Shown piece after piece: positions 19,215 to 25,051 of a stretch of 38,200 bases of DNA (its first letter is position 1; each line of letters begins with the position of its first letter). The stretch comes from Escherichia phage sortregn: sequence record MN850588.1; one strand, 5' to 3'. The translations under genes were made by a program, and so were the position numbers. The notes under the pieces were generated by a model that saw nothing but the letters and a program-made list of their open reading frames with translations, made no database searches and was not told the origin of the DNA.

Positions 19215-21449
19215 ATGGCACGAGTTAAAAAATCGGTGCAGAACTGGCAGGAATGCGCCCGGAAGAAATTAAGCGCCGCGATCGGGGCGGAGGACACCAG
19301 CCGCAAGAAGATGATCGAAACGGCGCGATTTGTCCGCATTCCTGGCGCTCAGTGGGAAGGCTCCACGAACTCCGGCTTTGCGATGGATGATGAACGTTTC
19401 CAGAAATACCCGCGATTTGAGCTAAACAAGGTCGGGCGCGAGGTGGATCGCATCATTTCAGACTACCGCCTGAACCGCGTAAACGTCACGTTCCGCCCGA
19501 AGGACACCCAGGCCTCCGAAGAACTGGCGGACAAGCTGAACGGCAAGTTTCGCGCAGACTTCAACGAGTCGAACGGCTCCGAAGCCGTGGACAACACCTA
19601 CGAGGACGGCGTGACGGGCGGAATGGGCGCTTTCCGCATGGACACCGAACTGGAGGACGAGTTCGACCCGGACAACGAACAGCGTCACATTGTTTTTTAC
19701 CCGATCTATGATCCGGCCTCGTGCCTGTTTATCGATCAGGACTCCAAGATGTACGATCGCAGTGATGCTATGTGGATGGCGGAGCTATTCAGCATGACCC
19801 CGGACAAGTACGAGGAGCGCTATCCCGACGCCCTCGCCCCGGAGGACCTGATGGCGATCGATACCGGGAAACAATTCGACTGGGCCACGAAGGACGCGAT
19901 CTATCTGGCGCGTTACTACGAGGTGAAGATCGAGGACACCACCGTGATCTCCTACAAGAACCCGTTAACCGGGGAGGTGGAGGTCTACGACGAGGACGAG
20001 ATCGAGCAGATCGAGGACGAACTGGAGGCCGGAGGCTGGGAACGCCAGAAGGATCGCAAGGTCAAGCGCCGCAAGGTCTATTGCGGACTTATGACTGGTG
20101 GCGAATGGCTGGAGGAGCCGAAGCTGATCCCGTTCGAGTGGATCCCGATCTTCGTGTTCAACGCCCGCCGCTCGTTCATCGACAACATGGAACGCGTAAG
20201 CGGTCACGCGACCCAGGCCCTCGACGCGCAACGTCTGGAAAACCTGATCGTGTCCATGATGGCGGACCAGGCCGCGCAGTCTGGCGGCGATAACATCCCG
20301 ATCATGGACATTGATATGATTCCCGGAGCGCTGGCTGACGCCTGGGGGGAACGTAACACGAAGCGCCCGGCATACTTGCCCGCTAAATCGCTCCGTAACG
20401 CCGCTGGTGAGGTTGTGCAGCAAGCCGGGCCACTGGGTTACACGCCATCGACGCCGCTCTCTCCGGCGCTGGCAGCGGTCCTACAGTACACCGGGAGCAC
20501 TATCCAGCAGATCGTCGGCTCGTCCCAGGTGGAGGCGTTACCGTCGAACCTGGCGACCGAAACCGTGGAGGCCATTTTCGCCCGTATGGACGGACAGGGC
20601 GCTCTCTACATGGACAACCTGGGGAAAACGCTCCGCCACTGTGGGCGCGTGTACCTCAGCGCGGCCCGCAAGGTCTACGGCTCGGAGAATTACGTCCGCG
20701 TGAAGAACGAGGACGGGACCGACGATCTCGTGTTAATGACCGGGAAAGTGATCGATCGTGACACGGACGAGGCGATCGCGATTAACGACCTCAAGCGCGG
20801 GAAATATGAGGTCGAGGCCGACGTGGGCGAGTCCTCCCAGACGAAGCGCGTCGCAACCGTTCGCAGCCTGACGAATCTCCTCCAGTCCATGCAGCCTGGC
20901 GACCCGAACGCCGCCGTAGTGATGGGCCTGATCATCATGAACATGGACGGCGAAGGCTTGCAGGACTTCAAGGAATACAGCCGCCGCCAGCTTCTCCTGA
21001 ATGGCATCGTGAAGCCGCAGACGGACGAGGAGAAAGCGATGGTAGCCGAGGCCCAGCAAGCCGCCCAGCAGCAGCCGGACGCGCAGATGGTAGCCGCTCA
21101 GGGCGTAGCGCAGCAGGGACAGGCCGCAGTGATGGAGCAGGAGAACAAGCGTTTAGAACTGACGCTCAAGGCGCAGAGCACCGCGTCCGACGGTCAACTG
21201 AAAAACGCGCAGACGGTCAAGACGATGGCAGAGGCGGCGGCAATCCCGCAGGATCAGCTATTGAGCGCGATCGCCGTTCTCCAGAAGTACGTCTCCCAGC
21301 AGAACAGCGACGCCCACAAACAGGCGGATCTGTTCCTCAAGGCTCAGGGACAGGGCCACACCCAGCGCGAGGACCAGATGGCCCGCGAGATGGCAGAGCG
21401 CCAGGCATCGCAGAGCGCCGATCGTCAACTGGGATTAGCTGGCCTGTAA
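19215..21449 (+). CDS. portal protein, P22 gp1-like
   Basis: 744 aa, collinear with P22 gp1 as recalled: ARYYEVKIEDTTVISYKNPLTGEVEVY vs [28 protein letters not shown], and KVKRRKVY vs QIKRRRVY. C-terminal Q/A-rich barrel AEAQQAAQQQPDAQMVAAQGVAQQGQAA. Confidence 0.95.
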   Translation: MARVKKSVQNWQECARKKLSAAIGAEDTSRKKMIETARFVRIPGAQWEGSTNSGFAMDDERFQKYPRFELNKVGREVDRIISDYRLNRVNVTFRPKDTQASEELADKLNGKFRADFNESNGSEAVDNTYEDGVTGGMGAFRMDTELEDEFDPDNEQRHIVFYPIYDPASCLFIDQDSKMYDRSDAMWMAELFSMTPDKYEERYPDALAPEDLMAIDTGKQFDWATKDAIYLARYYEVKIEDTTVISYKNPLTGEVEVYDEDEIEQIEDELEAGGWERQKDRKVKRRKVYCGLMTGGEWLEEPKLIPFEWIPIFVFNARRSFIDNMERVSGHATQALDAQRLENLIVSMMADQAAQSGGDNIPIMDIDMIPGALADAWGERNTKRPAYLPAKSLRNAAGEVVQQAGPLGYTPSTPLSPALAAVLQYTGSTIQQIVGSSQVEALPSNLATETVEAIFARMDGQGALYMDNLGKTLRHCGRVYLSAARKVYGSENYVRVKNEDGTDDLVLMTGKVIDRDTDEAIAINDLKRGKYEVEADVGESSQTKRVATVRSLTNLLQSMQPGDPNAAVVMGLIIMNMDGEGLQDFKEYSRRQLLLNGIVKPQTDEEKAMVAEAQQAAQQQPDAQMVAAQGVAQQGQAAVMEQENKRLELTLKAQSTASDGQLKNAQTVKTMAEAAAIPQDQLLSAIAVLQKYVSQQNSDAHKQADLFLKAQGQGHTQREDQMAREMAERQASQSADRQLGLAGL

Positions 21450-21473: not shown

Positions 21474-21502
21474 AAGACAAGCCCGCTTCGGCGGGCTATT
21501 CT
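21474..21502 (+). promoter_or_regulatory. promoter candidate overlapping the portal terminator
   Basis: AAGACA (21474-21479), 17-nt spacer, TATTCT (21497-21502). Same architecture as 25006-25034. Confidence 0.4.
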
Positions 21503-21505
21503 TTG
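21481..21505 (+). terminator. rho-independent terminator after the portal gene
   Basis: GCCCGC-TTCG-GCGGGC followed by TATTCTTTG. Confidence 0.7.
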
Positions 21506-21508
21506 CCT

Positions 21509-21519
21509 CGACACATCAC
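21509..21519 (+). repeat. conserved leader CGACACATCAC (copy 1)
   Basis: Identical 11-mer at 25041-25051. Both copies lie exactly 6 nt after the -10-like hexamer. Confidence 0.6.
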
Positions 21520-21543
21520 TAAACCATTACAAAGGAGTTTTGA

Positions 21544-21765
21544 ATGGCCCGATCACTGATAGCAGTCAAAGACGCCGCCGGGGAAAAGTACCTCCTCCCG
21601 GTCCGTAACATCGTGAGCGTGACGGAGTTCCCGGACAACGAGCGCCGCGTGGAGGTCAAGGTCCGCGAGCCGATCAATGGCCCAGACGGGCGGATCTGTG
21701 GGTACGAGTTAAACCTGTATTACTCGCCAATGTCGATCGCACAATTCGAAGGGGCTTACGCGTGA
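21544..21765 (+). CDS. hypothetical protein (insert gene 1)
   Basis: 73 aa; AAGGAG RBS; first gene after the portal terminator. Confidence 0.6.
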   Translation: MARSLIAVKDAAGEKYLLPVRNIVSVTEFPDNERRVEVKVREPINGPDGRICGYELNLYYSPMSIAQFEGAYA

Positions 21766-21932
21766 AACGCTACAAATGCACCGTAGGCGACAAGCGCGGG
21801 GCGTTCGGCGACTGTATGGAGCAGGACAAGGACGGGGACTGGATGCGCGTCTCCGACCATAATCGACACATTCAGGCACTGGAGCGCCAGATCGCGGCGC
21901 TAAAGGCCAAAACCAGAGAGACGAAACAATGA
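21762..21932 (+). CDS. hypothetical protein (insert gene 2, 56 aa)
   Basis: Below the ORF-track cutoff. GTGA overlap with the upstream stop and ATGA overlap with the downstream start. MKRYKCTVGDKRGAFGDCMEQDKDGDWMRVSDHNRHIQALERQIAALKAKTRETKQ. Confidence 0.5.
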   Translation: MKRYKCTVGDKRGAFGDCMEQDKDGDWMRVSDHNRHIQALERQIAALKAKTRETKQ

Positions 21933-22297
21933 AAACGACCTACAACCTCGACCAGATGGCCCTCTTTTCTGCGATCGCCGCAGCGGTAGGAAAACAGGCG
22001 CCAGGGCTTCCGGCGGATAACCGCGCTAACGTGGTGATCGAGGCCGCAAACATGATCGTAGCGGCCTATGCGCTGACCGATGCCGAATACATGGCGAAGA
22101 AGGCAGAAGCGCCGATCGCCGTTGACCTCCAGCCGACGGCGGAACAGGTGGAGGCCGGGATCGCCTCGCTGTGGGACACCATCCCCGGCGCGATGGATCA
22201 GCTATGCCAGGACGTGGCAGAGGAGGAGCAGGGCGATCTATTCTCCGACGCTGTTACTTTCGTGTGGCAAGCCATGATCGGGAAGCGTCCACAATGA
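21929..22297 (+). CDS. hypothetical protein (insert gene 3)
   Basis: 122 aa, Ala-rich and acidic, translationally coupled on both sides. Confidence 0.6.
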   Translation: MKTTYNLDQMALFSAIAAAVGKQAPGLPADNRANVVIEAANMIVAAYALTDAEYMAKKAEAPIAVDLQPTAEQVEAGIASLWDTIPGAMDQLCQDVAEEEQGDLFSDAVTFVWQAMIGKRPQ

Positions 22298-22563
22298 GCG
22301 TAATCCATCACTACCTCGCCTTTCCGGGCGGGGGAGTGTCCGCCCTCCGCAAGCTGGGCCAGACGCTCGAAGAACGCCACGACCTCGACGGCATACTGGA
22401 GGGGCCGGAGGAGGGGGAGCGCTGGCGCATCGTAGCCAGTGAGATGATCCACGCCGCAGAAGGGCCAGACGTCGCGCTCTACTACGTGATCCCCGCTTCG
22501 GTTCCACCGCACCACGAGGCGCTCTATCTCTCGCAAGCCCTCGTAAAAGCCGCCACGAAATAA
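22294..22563 (+). CDS. hypothetical protein (insert gene 4)
   Basis: ORF 22171-22563; ATG 22294 preferred (ATGA overlap with the upstream stop). 89 aa. Confidence 0.6.
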   Translation: MSVIHHYLAFPGGGVSALRKLGQTLEERHDLDGILEGPEEGERWRIVASEMIHAAEGPDVALYYVIPASVPPHHEALYLSQALVKAATK

Positions 22564-22647
22564 CCCGCCACCCTGGGGGGATCGTTAATCGCGATCTCCC
22601 CTATTTGCATTTTCCCGCCGCCCTCGCTTAAACTTACTCCCGCCACC
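22564..22647 (+). repeat. CCCGCCRCC triple repeat in the portal-insert/scaffold gap
   Basis: CCCGCCACC 22564-22572, CCCGCCGCC 22614-22622, CCCGCCACC 22639-22647. Confidence 0.5.
22576..22612 (+). terminator. imperfect hairpin plus T-rich tail (possible terminator of the 4-gene insert)
   Basis: GGGGGATCG-TTAATCG-CGATC(T)CCCC, then TATTTGCATTTT. Confidence 0.4.
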
Positions 22648-22690
22648 GATGGGCGAATACATCGCGTATGCAACAAAACGAGGATCTACG

Positions 22691-23689
22691 ATGAAATTCC
22701 GTGAAATGTTTTTGAAATATTATGCACCGTACACCGAGAACGACGGCGGCGCGGCGGCATATGAAGCTATGCAGAACGGCAACTCTCAGGAAGCCACGGA
22801 CGACACCCCGGACACTGACCCGAACGAGCAGGACCACGACAACGACAACGACGTGGACACCGATCTGGACGAGCAGGATCTGGACGAGAACGGCAAGCCG
22901 AAGGCGAAGGAAGGCGGCGAGAACGCGGAAACCGAGGACGAGGAGGAGGAGTTCCTGTTCGACGGTCAACCAGTTACCGCAGCGCCTACGGACGAAGATG
23001 ATCAGGAAGGCGACAGCGACCTGGTGAAACATCTCCGCGCCCAACTCCGCGAGCAGAAAAAACAATTCAAGACCTCCACCCAGGCGGCGCAGGAGCGCAA
23101 AGAGATTCCCGCAGATATGCCCCGCAAGCCAGAGATGGGCGACGAGGGGATCGACTGGGACCCGGAGAAGTACGCCGAAGCGCTGGACAAGTGGACCGAG
23201 GACAAGGCCGCTTATCAGCAGCGCGAGCAGGAGATGGCAGCGAAGCGCGAAGCGTTCGGGAAGAAATTCTCCGAAGGCCAGCAGCGCTACCAGACCGAAC
23301 GCGCTAAGGCGATCAAGAAGTATGCGGGCTTTGAGAAGGCCGAAGCCGCGATCGCAGAACTGCCGGAGCCGTTACAGGCGGGCCTGATGATCAACAGTAA
23401 GAACCCGGCGGCGCTGGTCATGGTACTGGGACGTAACGCTGATTTGCGGAAGCAAGTCGAGGATGCCTATAATAGCGACCATATCGCGCTGGGCTACCTA
23501 ATCCGCGATATTGAGGCCCGCGCAGGTTCCAAGCCGAAGGCGAAACAGAATCTCAATTCTACGCCAGAAGTTAAGGGCCAGAACGGAGTCGCAAACGTCG
23601 GACAACTGGAAGCACTTCGCAAACGAGCGGAAGCGACCGGGGATTATACGGAATACTTCGCAGCCAAGAACAAACGGGCTGAAAAGTAA
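22691..23689 (+). CDS. putative scaffolding protein
   Basis: ORF 22649-23689; ATG 22691 preferred (GAGGA RBS). Highly acidic N-half, charged helical C-half. Position between portal and coat as for P22 gp8. Confidence 0.65.
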   Translation: MKFREMFLKYYAPYTENDGGAAAYEAMQNGNSQEATDDTPDTDPNEQDHDNDNDVDTDLDEQDLDENGKPKAKEGGENAETEDEEEEFLFDGQPVTAAPTDEDDQEGDSDLVKHLRAQLREQKKQFKTSTQAAQERKEIPADMPRKPEMGDEGIDWDPEKYAEALDKWTEDKAAYQQREQEMAAKREAFGKKFSEGQQRYQTERAKAIKKYAGFEKAEAAIAELPEPLQAGLMINSKNPAALVMVLGRNADLRKQVEDAYNSDHIALGYLIRDIEARAGSKPKAKQNLNSTPEVKGQNGVANVGQLEALRKRAEATGDYTEYFAAKNKRAEK

Positions 23690-23719: not shown

Positions 23720-24976
23720 ATGGCTAACCAGTTAGCGAAGGATCTCGAAATTGCATTCGAGAATTATGTGGCAGGCTTTGACGCGTCTTGCGTAGTATCG
23801 CAGAACGCAGCCAAATTCCGCCCGGATGATACCGCGATGCAACGCGCCGGGGACGTGATCTATCGTCCGCAGCACTACCACGCGGATATTTTGGAAGGTC
23901 TGGATCTGACTGGCAAGGCCGGGACCGATATCGTCCAGCGCCTGGTCCCGTCGGCGTTCAAAGAACCTCAGAACGTGCTCTATAAGCTGGACGCTCGCGA
24001 AATGCGCGACCCAGAGCACAAGAAAGAAATGGGCCGAGCAGCGGGCCAACGTATCGCAGCGAAGATCGACTCCGATCTGATCAACGCCGCAGCACGTTAC
24101 GCGACGCACGTCGTCCCGGTAGGCACTAACACGACCGGAACCCTGGGCCGCGACCTGTGGAACGCAGCGGCGGGCGTGGATGCCGAAATGACCGCTATCG
24201 GGATCCCGGTAGGCGTGAACCGTCGTTCCTTCTGGAACCCCTTCTCCTACAAAGACCTTGCGGGCGAACTGGGCGGACGCCAGTACGTCGCGGGCGTGAC
24301 CCTCTCCGCATACGAGAAGGCGCAGATCCCGGATGTGGCGAGCTTCGACTCCTACAAGACGGACATCTCTCCGCGTCTGGGCGCTGGCCCGACTGGAGCG
24401 ATCACCCTGACCGCAGCCCCGGCGCACAAAGTCCAGTCTAAGAACGCGAACGACATCCCGGTGGATAACCGCGAAGGCGTGATCGATGTTTCTGCTGGTC
24501 ACGGTCTGAAGGCTGGCGACGCGTTCACTATCGCGGGCGTTCACTCCGTCCACATGATCAGCAAGGACACGACTGATCAGCTTCAAGTGTTCCGTGTGCT
24601 GGCAGTGTCCGACAACAACGTAACGATCACCCCGCAGATCCTCCCGCCGGATAACGCGGATCTGCCGTCTCGTCCTTACTCCAACGTGGACGCGAACGCA
24701 GCCTCCGGCGCTGAACTGACCGTTATCAACAAGAACGCGGCGAACGCTAACTTGCTGTGGGCGGACGGCTCCGTGGAGCTTATGCTGGGTAATCTGGCGT
24801 TCCCGACTGGTCAAGGCCCGCAGGTTATGCGCGCTACCGCGAAGAACGGCGCGACGCTGATCATGTCCTACAGCTTCGACCACATCGCGGGCGTCACCAC
24901 TTGCCGCTTTACCACGCTTTACGGCGTTTCCGTCCTCGTGCCGGAATATGTCGGCCTGGTACTGCCGAACCAGTAA
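23720..24976 (+). CDS. major capsid (coat) protein, P22 gp5-like
   Basis: 418 aa. AGDAFTIAGVHSVHMISKDTTDQLQVFRVLAVSDNNVTITPQI vs P22 gp5 [45 protein letters not shown] (as recalled). Followed by a strong terminator. Confidence 0.9.
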   Translation: MANQLAKDLEIAFENYVAGFDASCVVSQNAAKFRPDDTAMQRAGDVIYRPQHYHADILEGLDLTGKAGTDIVQRLVPSAFKEPQNVLYKLDAREMRDPEHKKEMGRAAGQRIAAKIDSDLINAAARYATHVVPVGTNTTGTLGRDLWNAAAGVDAEMTAIGIPVGVNRRSFWNPFSYKDLAGELGGRQYVAGVTLSAYEKAQIPDVASFDSYKTDISPRLGAGPTGAITLTAAPAHKVQSKNANDIPVDNREGVIDVSAGHGLKAGDAFTIAGVHSVHMISKDTTDQLQVFRVLAVSDNNVTITPQILPPDNADLPSRPYSNVDANAASGAELTVINKNAANANLLWADGSVELMLGNLAFPTGQGPQVMRATAKNGATLIMSYSFDHIAGVTTCRFTTLYGVSVLVPEYVGLVLPNQ

Positions 24977-24995
24977 GACGCGACGCGCAGCACAA

Positions 24996-25022
24996 AGGGG
25001 AGCCATTGGCTCCTCTTTTTTT
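24996..25022 (+). terminator. rho-independent terminator after the coat gene
   Basis: AGGGGAGCC-ATT-GGCTCCTCT 9-bp stem followed by a T7 run. Confidence 0.8.
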
Positions 25023-25034
25023 ATGGCTTATACT
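25006..25034 (+). promoter_or_regulatory. sigma70-like promoter candidate overlapping the coat terminator
   Basis: TTGGCT (25006-25011), 17-nt spacer, TATACT (25029-25034). Confidence 0.55.
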
Positions 25035-25040
25035 GTTCCC

Positions 25041-25051
25041 CGACACATCAC
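25041..25051 (+). repeat. conserved leader CGACACATCAC (copy 2)
   Basis: Identical to 21509-21519, 6 nt after the -10-like hexamer. Confidence 0.6.

Follow-up and report, generated by a model that had tools for sequence, protein, structure and literature searches.

What are four small genes doing between portal and scaffold in a phage whose head module otherwise follows the P22 pattern? The question is raised by Escherichia phage sortregn (MN850588.1), from which a window of 38,200 nucleotides was analyzed. Sortregn and Salmonella phage Lumpael, which are 99% identical, have P22-type genes for portal, scaffold, coat, adaptor, needle, and ejection proteins, in the P22 order. The classical procapsid module (P22, Sf6, Sf101, CUS-3, phage L) runs terminase, portal, scaffold, coat; sortregn differs in carrying 1.0 kb and four genes between portal and scaffold. 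All four products are annotated as hypothetical. The flanking head genes and the four intervening genes, here called g1 to g4, are laid out as follows.

19215-21449, + strand: portal gene, left flank of the slot (PF16510 P22_portal, E 5e-158; phrog_156)
21532-21537, + strand: strong SD sequence of g1, AAGGAG
21544-21765, + strand: g1 (sortregn_34), 73 aa, ATG start, family A
21762-21932, + strand: g2 (sortregn_35), 56 aa, GTG start, basic (pI 9.4), phrog_35516
21929-22297, + strand: g3 (sortregn_36), 122 aa, acidic (pI 4.1)
22294-22563, + strand: g4 (sortregn_37), 89 aa, family C
22691-23689, + strand: scaffold gene, right flank of the slot (phrog_648, E 3e-69)
23720-24976: coat gene (PF11651, E 6e-71)

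The scaffold start is most likely the ATG at 22691 (RBS GAGGA, as in the Lumpael annotation) and not 22649. A first-pass annotation, made from the sequence of this locus, had proposed that the four genes are additions to the classical P22-like head module. They are: in the temperate P22-like phages Sf101, CUS-3, Kapi1, and Huey, the aligned region is annotated with portal, scaffold, and coat only. A description of the phage L procapsid module is given in PMC8022706.

The four open reading frames of 73, 56, 122, and 89 aa, and the stop/start overlaps reported to link them, can be read directly in the sequence: GTGA at 21762-21765, ATGA at 21929-21932, and ATGA at 22294-22297. Overlaps of four bases occur commonly in such genomes as this one (in Lumpael, at 9 of the 53 same-strand junctions); three consecutive ones are the sole such run in the genome, yet no statistical oddity. 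Comparison with Lumpael, sortsyn, and ST231 reveals mostly synonymous changes, with pN/pS of 0.0-0.2 across g1 to g4 (0-0.12 for g1), the signature of purifying selection. The called frames have a GC content of 58-64% and a GC3 of 73-77%; the genome has a GC content of 59%, and the genes adjoining the cassette a GC3 of 70-81%. Thus, the base composition is the genome's own and is not foreign. Since substitutions are mostly synonymous and GC3 resembles that of neighboring genes, the four ORFs are shown to be real genes, and they form one short translationally coupled unit between two hairpins, T1 and T2. The GTG start of g2 is backed by a 52%-identical homologue in which the first 18 residues are conserved. 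None of the four proteins has a transmembrane or hydrophobic segment, and all are small and soluble; g3 has a net charge of about -10.5.

The unit occupies a position that is widely used. A portal-scaffold slot is present across a clade of virulent P22-like phages (Murrayvirus, Sortsnevirus, Skarprettervirus, Hungariovirus, and related contigs). Its content is a varying combination of a few families restricted to the clade, and they always stand in one order: A or E, a small insert, B, D, C. This order holds across genera whose scaffold proteins share only 35-45% identity, and family C is the final slot gene before scaffold in all loci examined but L034. Families A, B, C, and D were never found outside this head module and clade; the matches to resident families lie on contigs of about 40-42 kb from this phage clade. 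At the same time, no family occurs in all of the sequenced isolates compared: IME279 is without family C, KMB41, Skarpretter, and C130_2 are without family B, and sortregn, Lumpael, ST231, Kc237, and Sortsne are without family D. The slot itself is absent from Kc259, where portal and scaffold are adjacent, from L036, L037, and L039, where the portal-to-scaffold gap is only 140-155 bases, and from temperate P22-like phages and some distant relatives. Because each family is missing from at least one isolate and slotless relatives exist, none of the families is required to build a P22-type head. By this comparison the cassette is accessory, as had been proposed, in a slot that the clade fills with differing, dispensable genes, and it is no new kind of system.

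Family relationships divide the cassette into residents and imports. Family A, to which g1 belongs, occurs only in the portal-scaffold slot. When the g1 profile was run with HMMER against the full set of 1.84 billion representatives, 10 matches reached E<=0.001, 6 of them short proteins of g1 size, and no wider family emerged; the other 4, very long multi-stretch proteins, were judged spurious. Among named isolates, g2 is found in Lumpael and sortregn only, and IMG/VR contig L027 carries a 77%-identical copy at the same position. Its homologues in the Vibrio phages LV6, VHS1, and ICP1 lie in non-structural regions, and Skarpretter-like contigs carry one upstream of portal on the opposite strand. 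The g3 protein is composite. Its C-terminal half (about residues 61-122) corresponds to the domain conserved in family B (PI.V.LQPT ... WQAMIG.R), in keeping with a family whose N-terminal half is variable and whose C-terminal half is conserved. The relatives of its N-terminal half (about residues 1-58), each from an early or right-arm region, are Bas77_0084, which stands alone amid small non-structural genes, and the N-terminus of N15 gp42, encoded in the early right-arm operon. On these alignments g3 is shown to be a family B protein with a replaced N-terminal domain. Given that their relatives reside in non-structural regions of unrelated phages, g2 and the g3 N-terminal domain look, by homology, like imports. 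The first-pass picture of a single self-contained cassette inserted at this site finds no support: the slot is long-standing across the clade, and g1, the C-terminal half of g3, and g4 come from slot-only families that keep the same order in diverged genera. What does stand of the imported origin concerns g2 and the N-terminal half of g3; the other parts are residents.

How would such a slot be expressed? The candidate signals are listed here.

21474-21502, + strand: candidate promoter P1, inferred from alignment; -35 AAGACA (21474-21479), 17-nt spacer, -10 TATTCT (21497-21502)
21480-21497, + strand: hairpin T1 (AGCCCGCTTCGGCGGGCT, then ATTCTTTG), 3' of the portal gene; -20.4 kcal/mol, z -5.0
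21509-21519, + strand: motif CGACACATCAC, 6 nt downstream of the P1 -10 hexamer
22575-22601, + strand: hairpin T2, 3' of g4, then TATTTGCATTTTC; -21 kcal/mol, z -3.8; terminator-like, with a U-rich tail
22605-22634, + strand: candidate promoter P2 for scaffold and coat; TTGCAT, 18-nt spacer, TAAACT
22646-22668, + strand: scaffold-leader element CCGATGGG...ACATCGCGTA, invariant in 11 phages

The left border had been described as a portal terminator/promoter unit. The hairpin is there: T1 scans as terminator-like on both strands, and its stem is kept in 10 relatives despite differing stem and loop sequences. The promoter is plausible from comparative footprinting. The 17-nt spacer of candidate P1 is the T1 hairpin itself; in the -10 hexamer, T, A, T, and the final T are invariant in the alignment, Skarpretter has TATAGT at this position without a U-run, and in the Sortsne group the -35 position reads TTTACA. 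The candidate agrees with the sigma-70 consensus at 8 of 12 positions, below the scan threshold, and was therefore missed by the consensus scan. Since the conserved bases of P1 overlap the terminator tail, their conservation could serve termination alone. The 11-mer CGACACATCAC recurs in identical form at 25041-25051, 6 nt past the -10 (TATACT) of P3, a promoter-like site downstream of the coat terminator.

At the right border, the terminator-like hairpin previously placed at 22576-22612 corresponds to T2 with its U-rich tail, and relatives keep a G-run/C-run hairpin at this position with differing interiors. The P2 hexamers are conserved in 11 phages (TTGC.. or TTTACA; TACACT or TAAACT), and the 18-nt spacer between them diverges. 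The scaffold-leader element is also found in Kc259, a phage without the slot, and marks where the slot is bounded on the right. An Rfam and tandem-repeat scan of the region gave no match. On the strength of the conserved promoter-like hexamers and hairpins, we hold with moderate confidence that the slot is its own late transcription unit. P1 would start slot transcription, with the T1 hairpin serving as its spacer; the strong SD sequence on g1 and the stop/start overlaps would yield the four proteins in fixed ratios; T2 would terminate the unit; and the separate, conserved P2 would restart transcription for scaffold and coat.

The proteins themselves resemble nothing characterized. Pfam, NCBIfam, and PADLOC (which covers defense proteins and not anti-defense proteins) gave no significant match to g1-g4, and PHROGs returned "unknown function" families only: phrog_35516 for g2 (E 1.6e-10), phrog_15291 for the N-terminal half of g3 (E 5.1e-8), and PHROG 35278 for g3 (E 9.4e-22). 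These searches agree with the earlier reading that the genes carry no recognizable motif or domain. Profile and sequence searches of all PDB sequences with each of the four proteins gave chance-level matches only. AF2 structure models cover g3 and g4: the g3 model is all-helical with low confidence (pLDDT 72, pTM 0.42), and its fold matches are generic helices only; the g4 model is confident. Set beside catalogued defense and anti-defense proteins, among them DNA mimics such as Ocr or ArdA, g3 is acidic but offers no more than these generic helix matches. Overall, profile, structure, and fold searches assigned no function and found no detectable similarity between g1-g4 and a characterized protein or fold. 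Of the functions suggested in the first-pass annotation (anti-defense, superinfection exclusion, a capsid accessory role), none was favored or disfavored by a search. Specifically, Pfam, NCBIfam, and PDB sequences revealed no homology to known assembly proteins (portal, scaffold, coat, terminase), Pfam and NCBIfam no toxin or antitoxin domain, and there was no sequence or fold similarity to known internal head proteins (T4 IP, T7 gp6.7/7.3). By hhalign, families A, B, and C show no relationship to each other or to scaffold, with probabilities below 1% for families B and C against the scaffold profile. Pfam and PHROGs found nothing functional in the other slot families, in N15 gp42, or in the Bas77, LV6, and ICP1 homologues, and nothing in the extra ORFs of L038 and L040. 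Literature searches covering Murrayvirus, Sortsnevirus, Skarprettervirus, Hungariovirus, and single phages of the group turned up no proteomics, transcriptomics, or genetics on these genes. In Kc237, homologues of g1 and g3 bear the label "internal virion protein"; we set this label aside, as the source paper gives it no experimental basis, and the terms "internal virion," "mass spectrometry," and "proteom" are absent from that paper.

In terms of function, our working model is that the slot residents are head-linked accessory or minor cargo proteins; by analogy and comparative data this is a weak proposal, and we advance it as a tentative one. The resident families would be produced together with the procapsid proteins, taken up by the head as minor cargo, and delivered into the next host with the DNA, there to handle host factors. 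In family B, the conserved C-terminal domain would be the head-targeting part and the interchangeable N-terminal domain the payload. Four circumstantial lines point in this direction. First, the resident families go with this head module and no other, and traveling with it ties them to it. Second, family B combines variable N-terminal with conserved C-terminal halves. Third, the N-terminal domain of g3 is a stand-alone protein in Bas77 and part of N15 gp42. Fourth, family D, in relatives, ends in the C-terminal SSB motif D-I-P-F, the same tail as on the phage's own SSB; this tail would point towards host DNA-metabolism partners and away from capsid parts. Taken as a whole, an accessory slot with its own late transcription unit and the cargo working model is the best explanation we can offer, held at somewhat less than even confidence.

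Several observations count against the cargo model. Canonical P22-type ejection proteins are already encoded downstream (Lumpael gp43-45), the profiles of families A, B, and C show no match to scaffold, and we know of no targeting signal or capsid-targeting sequence in P22-type heads.

Known systems provide a frame for the cargo model. The T4 internal proteins IPI, IPII, and IPIII are packaged and injected to counter host restriction, and the T-even ip locus is hypervariable, with small dispensable genes in the head-morphogenesis cluster that are expressed with prohead proteins. The sortregn slot genes are similarly small, variable, located inside a head-gene cluster, and apparently dispensable. 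They differ in lacking sequence or fold similarity to the T4 proteins and in the head they accompany: to our knowledge, P22-type heads have neither a prohead protease nor a capsid-targeting sequence. T7 gp6.7 and gp7.3 are virion proteins of about 90-100 aa that are ejected at infection, and their genes adjoin the portal and scaffold genes of a podovirus. Here too no homology was detected; the T7 genes lie upstream of portal, whereas those of sortregn lie between portal and scaffold. A more ambitious version of the cargo model, which we consider rather improbable, would make the slot the source of a modular set of effectors, delivered by the capsid and peculiar to this P22-type head. Residents would enter procapsids by way of clade-specific targeting domains, the family B C-terminal domain being one example; the interchangeable payloads would be the swapped g3 N-terminal domain and, in relatives, the SSB-tailed family D; and these payloads would be injected with the DNA to neutralize host nucleases or defenses in the first seconds of infection, making the slot a P22-lineage counterpart of the T4 internal-protein system.

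Could the proteins act without ever entering a particle? As unpackaged, cytoplasmic effectors active late in the infected cell, they might blunt host sensors of portal, terminase, or coat, or adjust the DNA or RNA metabolism of the host while packaging proceeds. We regard this as possible, if doubtful. The genes' dispensability and their varying presence among close relatives suit such a role, as do the relatives of g2 and the g3 N-terminal half in non-structural regions of other phages, the strong acidity of g3 (net charge about -10), and the SSB-type tail of family D. Hosts sense late structural proteins through Avs and CapRel-type systems, and co-expression with portal and coat would fit counter-measures against sensors of those proteins. 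However, counter-defense genes usually move between phage types, unlike families A, B, C, and D, which are confined to this head module and clade; a gene order fixed over long divergence is unusual for arms-race genes; and PADLOC, restricted to defense proteins, yielded no match.

The same fixed order and module restriction that speak against late effectors would suit non-essential helpers of head assembly or stability, individually dispensable: small chaperone-like or minor structural proteins that aid portal incorporation, scaffold function, or capsid stability. The constant portal-scaffold position, with family C directly 5' of scaffold in nearly every locus, the native composition, the purifying selection, and a weak match of one family D member to a scaffold PHROG (E 6e-4) argue for this role. 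It is nonetheless unlikely: the proteins resemble no known assembly protein, there are slotless phages whose portal, scaffold, and coat are of the same P22 type, and the domain swapping of g3 and the SSB tail of family D fit an assembly role poorly. In addition, family C has been lost in IME279, a phage that shares ~90% nucleotide identity with sortkaff (Olsen et al. 2020). As an observation on the slot itself, fixed order and long residence could equally mean a non-essential assembly role.

A further candidate is the classical moron that benefits a lysogen, such as a toxin-antitoxin, superinfection-exclusion, or lysis-timing cassette. The moron concept reportedly goes back to Juhala, Hendrix, and colleagues and to lambdoid late operons (HK97, lambda). 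Like lambdoid morons, the sortregn genes are extra genes that separate two neighbors lying side by side in related phages, form a compact, translationally coupled unit of small proteins with hairpins at both ends, have a terminator-like hairpin and a plausible promoter of their own, and appear dispensable for virion assembly. Unlike them, the cassette matches the rest of the genome in composition (GC 58-64%, GC3 73-77%), and three of the four genes are long-term slot residents in fixed order and not recent single-gene insertions. Moreover, toxin-antitoxin, Sie, and membrane features are absent (no Pfam or NCBIfam match, no hydrophobic segment). The sequenced relatives come from isolations based on host lysis or plaques, which speaks against expression from a prophage; no prophage copies were found among the homologues, and the contigs that carry the matches are of this phage type and measure about 40-42 kb. 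A classical moron is therefore very improbable. Finally, that some of the four ORFs are chance open frames, as 59% GC yields in numbers and at length on both strands, is effectively refuted by the dominance of synonymous substitutions, the neighbor-like GC3, the protein-level homologues of all four, and the confident AF2 model of g4.

At present the locus amounts to four hypothetical proteins that GenBank already lists, for which sequence and structure give no functional lead. If our description is right, it represents a natural "expansion slot" with clear limits, set into a P22-type head module that is otherwise rigid; the boundaries are conserved, and the ORFan families that fill it are interchangeable and few. 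Such a slot provides a system for studying the accessory proteins that a virulent podovirus makes alongside its procapsid, as well as a convenient engineering site for payloads. Protein injection for counter-defense is familiar from T4, P1, T7, and N4. If the cargo model is true, it would extend this strategy to P22-type capsids and give functions to about five ORFan families.

The four overlapping small genes between the portal and scaffold genes of sortregn (g1 to g4; 21544-22563, plus strand; 73, 56, 122, and 89 aa) are genuine genes, and it is firmly established that they make up an accessory cassette, dispensable and coupled in translation, which occupies a variable slot found across the clade in the P22-type head module. 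The first-pass annotation described their positions, lengths, and GTGA/ATGA/ATGA overlaps exactly, as read in the sequence. GenBank holds proteins identical to all four products, every one labeled "hypothetical protein": g1 is QHR68056 (sortregn_34 by consecutive numbering), g2, g3, and g4 are sortregn_35 to sortregn_37 (QHR68057-59), and the four correspond to Lumpael gp56-53. Most differences from Lumpael, sortsyn, and ST231 are synonymous (pN/pS 0.0-0.2 for the four ORFs), and the GC3 of the called frames is like that of neighboring genes. The Shine-Dalgarno sequence of g1 is strong (AAGGAG, 21532-21537) and those of g2, g3, and g4 are weak, which fits translational coupling. A 52%-identical homologue keeps the residues before the first internal Met of g2, in support of the GTG start. 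Four-base overlaps occur at 9 of 53 same-strand junctions in Lumpael, where those of the slot are the sole run of three; such a run is ordinary phage gene packing.

Sortregn (MN850588) is a 38,200-bp Murrayvirus in Olsen et al. 2020 (PMC7552041); Lumpael (41,126 bp) and other Murrayvirus genomes exceed its record in length by about 3 kb. From portal to coat, identity is 99.2% with Salmonella phage Lumpael (NC_048113, genus Murrayvirus) and 85-87% with sortsyn, IME_EC2, ST231, and KMB41. The Lumpael annotation gives the P22-type morphogenetic order: large terminase, portal, the four genes, scaffold, coat, adaptor, head closure, needle, three ejection proteins, and tailspike. Pfam and PHROGs confirm portal, scaffold, and coat in the window. 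The longest scaffold ORF starts at 22649, within a conserved leader and without a ribosome-binding site; the ATG at 22691 has a GAGGA site and agrees with the Lumpael annotation (332 aa).

The cassette had been proposed as a local insertion, a view contradicted by its relatives. Two to four small genes lie between portal and scaffold in every sequenced Murrayvirus, Sortsnevirus, Skarprettervirus, and Hungariovirus relative and in Kc237, and likewise in metagenomic and IMG/VR contigs. The slot is absent from Kc259 and from three further loci (L036, L037, and L039); in temperate P22-like phages (Sf101, CUS-3, Kapi1, Huey, and others), the annotation under the aligned region comprises portal, scaffold, and coat only. 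All-against-all BLASTP of slot proteins from ten relatives gave eight families:

Family A: g1-like
g2 family: g2-like
Family B: g3-like
Family C: g4-like, with a short form of 88 aa and a long form of 119-148 aa
Family D: about 156 aa (range about 145-168 aa), not in the window
Family E: a separate BLASTP family
Two singletons

Further combinations of slot genes, from wider sampling, are as follows:

L027: A-g2-B-C
L021: A-B-D-C
L030: E-B-C
L032: D-C
L034: D-C-s2
L038: new-D-C
L040, 3062-4165: a lone 367-aa ORF

Gene order is A or E, a small insert, B, D, and C, and family C directly precedes scaffold in all loci examined but L034, where a singleton, s2, follows it. L040 is a more distant relative; its ORF overlaps the portal stop by 4 nt and has no Pfam match. 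Profile searches of 5.8 billion proteins returned 40 clusters for C, 50 for B, and 10 for A, without a Pfam domain in any; their contigs are all of this phage type and reach about 40-42 kb. When 1.84 billion representatives were scanned with the g1 profile by filter-free HMMER, 10 matches were listed at E<=0.001: six are short, g1-sized proteins, and the other four, very long multi-stretch proteins, were judged spurious.

A tblastn matrix of presence and absence across the relatives revealed no universal slot family. Family B is missing in KMB41, Skarpretter, and C130_2; family D in sortregn, Lumpael, ST231, Kc237, and Sortsne; and family C in Klebsiella phage IME279, which shares 89.8% nucleotide similarity with sortkaff (Olsen et al. 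2020, PMC7552041). The sequence 3' of the last slot gene stop in IME279 (L008:4532-4674) matches that found 3' of the sortkaff family C gene; IME279 has lost the g4-like gene that sortkaff keeps. Since every family is missing somewhere and slot-less relatives exist, an essential role in head assembly is ruled out.

The slot combines residents and apparent imports. Confined to it are g1, g4, and the C-terminal half of g3 (PI.V.LQPT ... WQAMIG.R); this head module and these parts have co-evolved. In its N-terminal half, g3 is unlike every other family B member. That half matches phrog_15291, and its relatives are a stand-alone 61-aa gene, found in Bas77-80 and DS8 amid small non-structural genes, and the N-terminus of gp42 of N15, encoded in the early right-arm operon. 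Lumpael and sortregn are the only named isolates with g2 (phrog_35516), which the IMG/VR contig L027 also carries; g2 has relatives in the Vibrio siphophages LV6 (adjoining a "putative DNA polymerase" gene) and VHS1, and in ICP1. The 52%-identical homologue lies upstream of portal on the opposite strand in Skarpretter-like contigs (L022-L025:236-385, minus strand), adjoining a hydrophobic protein of 68 aa; the module in which this small gene sits thus varies inside a single clade. By the distribution of these relatives, g2 and one g3 domain behave like mobile accessory elements.

Intergenic DNA flanking the slot on both sides is more conserved than coding DNA; in C130_2, for example, 53 nt at the portal terminator are 92.5% identical, as against about 69% in genes. 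The elements are:

21480-21497: T1, hairpin after the portal gene (-20.4 kcal/mol), kept in ten phages despite differing stem and loop sequences
22575-22601: T2, hairpin after g4 (-21 kcal/mol)
22605-22634: TTGCAT-18-TAAACT, P2 (candidate promoter for scaffold and coat); hexamers conserved in 11 phages, spacer divergent
22646-22668: invariant scaffold-leader element CCGATGGG...ACATCGCGTA, conserved in 11 phages
24994-25051: second terminator-plus-promoter unit, after the coat gene (hairpin 24994-25018)
25006-25034: promoter-like TTGGCT-17-TATACT, after the coat terminator

Directly 3' of T1 lies the hexamer TATTCT, whose T, A, T, and final T are invariant among aligned relatives (Skarpretter has TATAGT and has lost the U-run), and 17-18 nt upstream of it is AAGACA, or TTTACA in the Sortsne group. 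We read these as a putative promoter for the slot, P1, with the T1 hairpin as spacer; a consensus scan missed it because it scores 8/12. Independent support comes from the 11-mer CGACACATCAC, found exactly twice in intergenic DNA, at 21509-21519 (within the unit 21480-21519, after the portal terminator) and at 25041-25051 (after TTGGCT-17-TATACT), each time 6 nt 3' of a -10-like hexamer that comes after a terminator hairpin. The two units may share this 11-mer as a late 5'-leader or regulatory site. Kc259, which lacks the slot, has the scaffold-leader element as well; the CGATG and CATCG arms of the element make a small inverted repeat with a variable-length loop, and folding alone gave no significant structure (z -0.15). 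The P22 scaffold gene is translationally autoregulated, and by analogy the element could be an operator of that kind. The 9-mer CCCGCCACC brackets the T2/P2 unit, at 22564-22572 (directly after the g4 stop) and 22639-22647 (just before the conserved leader), with related copies in relatives; this repeat might be a scar left by recombination or duplication, or might serve in regulation. In the predicted arrangement, terminase and portal make up one late unit, the slot a second, and scaffold and coat a third; a hairpin would end each unit, and a promoter-like site would restart transcription. The self-contained layout noted in the first-pass annotation gains support from these putative boundaries.

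The same annotation saw no recognizable motif, and Pfam, NCBIfam, and PADLOC likewise give no match for g1 to g4. Their PHROG matches are to "unknown function" families only, and sequence searches of the PDB found nothing. The predicted g3 model is helical, at modest confidence (pLDDT 72, pTM 0.42), and a fold search with it returned generic helices only. We found no proteomics or genetics in the literature on these genera. GenBank labels the g1 and g3 homologues of Kosakonia phage Kc237 (L003:2825-3510) "internal virion protein"; the terms "internal virion," "mass spectrometry," and "proteom" are absent from the Kc237 paper, and a label without data there should not be propagated. A further observation concerns family D, found in relatives only:

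L005:3441-3917: KMB41
L007:3792-4262: sortkaff
L008:4062-4532: IME279
L009:2712-3167: Skarpretter
L010:2674-3147: C130_2
L032:862-1368
L034:3157-3588

Its C-termini (...PLDIPF, ...DLDIPF, ...DPDIPF, or ...FDDIPF) carry the C-terminal motif of bacterial single-stranded DNA-binding protein (SSB) and share their last residues with the phage's own SSB (Lumpael gp39, ...DFDDDIPF); the sortsyn copy lacks this tail. The motif suggests that family D docks onto SSB-tail-binding host proteins, and points to host DNA-metabolism partners rather than capsid parts.

We tentatively favor a head-linked cargo model, in which small soluble slot proteins would be produced alongside those of the procapsid, packed into the head, and set free in the next host. 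It is favored because the resident families never leave this head module, because family B joins a conserved C-terminal domain to interchangeable N-terminal domains, one of which other phages encode as a separate gene in non-structural regions, and because family D ends in the SSB motif. About as probable is a reading in which the products act instead as late effectors in the cytoplasm. Non-essential assembly helpers are unlikely; profile-profile comparison with the scaffold family was negative. Toxin-antitoxin, exclusion, or lysis functions are highly improbable; all four proteins lack a hydrophobic segment of transmembrane length. Of the four, g3 is acidic (pI 4.1) and g2 basic (pI 9.4).

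Variable accessory regions in structural modules are a well-known phenomenon, exemplified by morons and the T-even ip locus, which the sortregn slot resembles in this respect. The g1 to g4 ORFs were already annotated in GenBank; new here are the definition of the slot with its conserved boundaries, the catalogue and order of its families, and the swap of a g3 domain.
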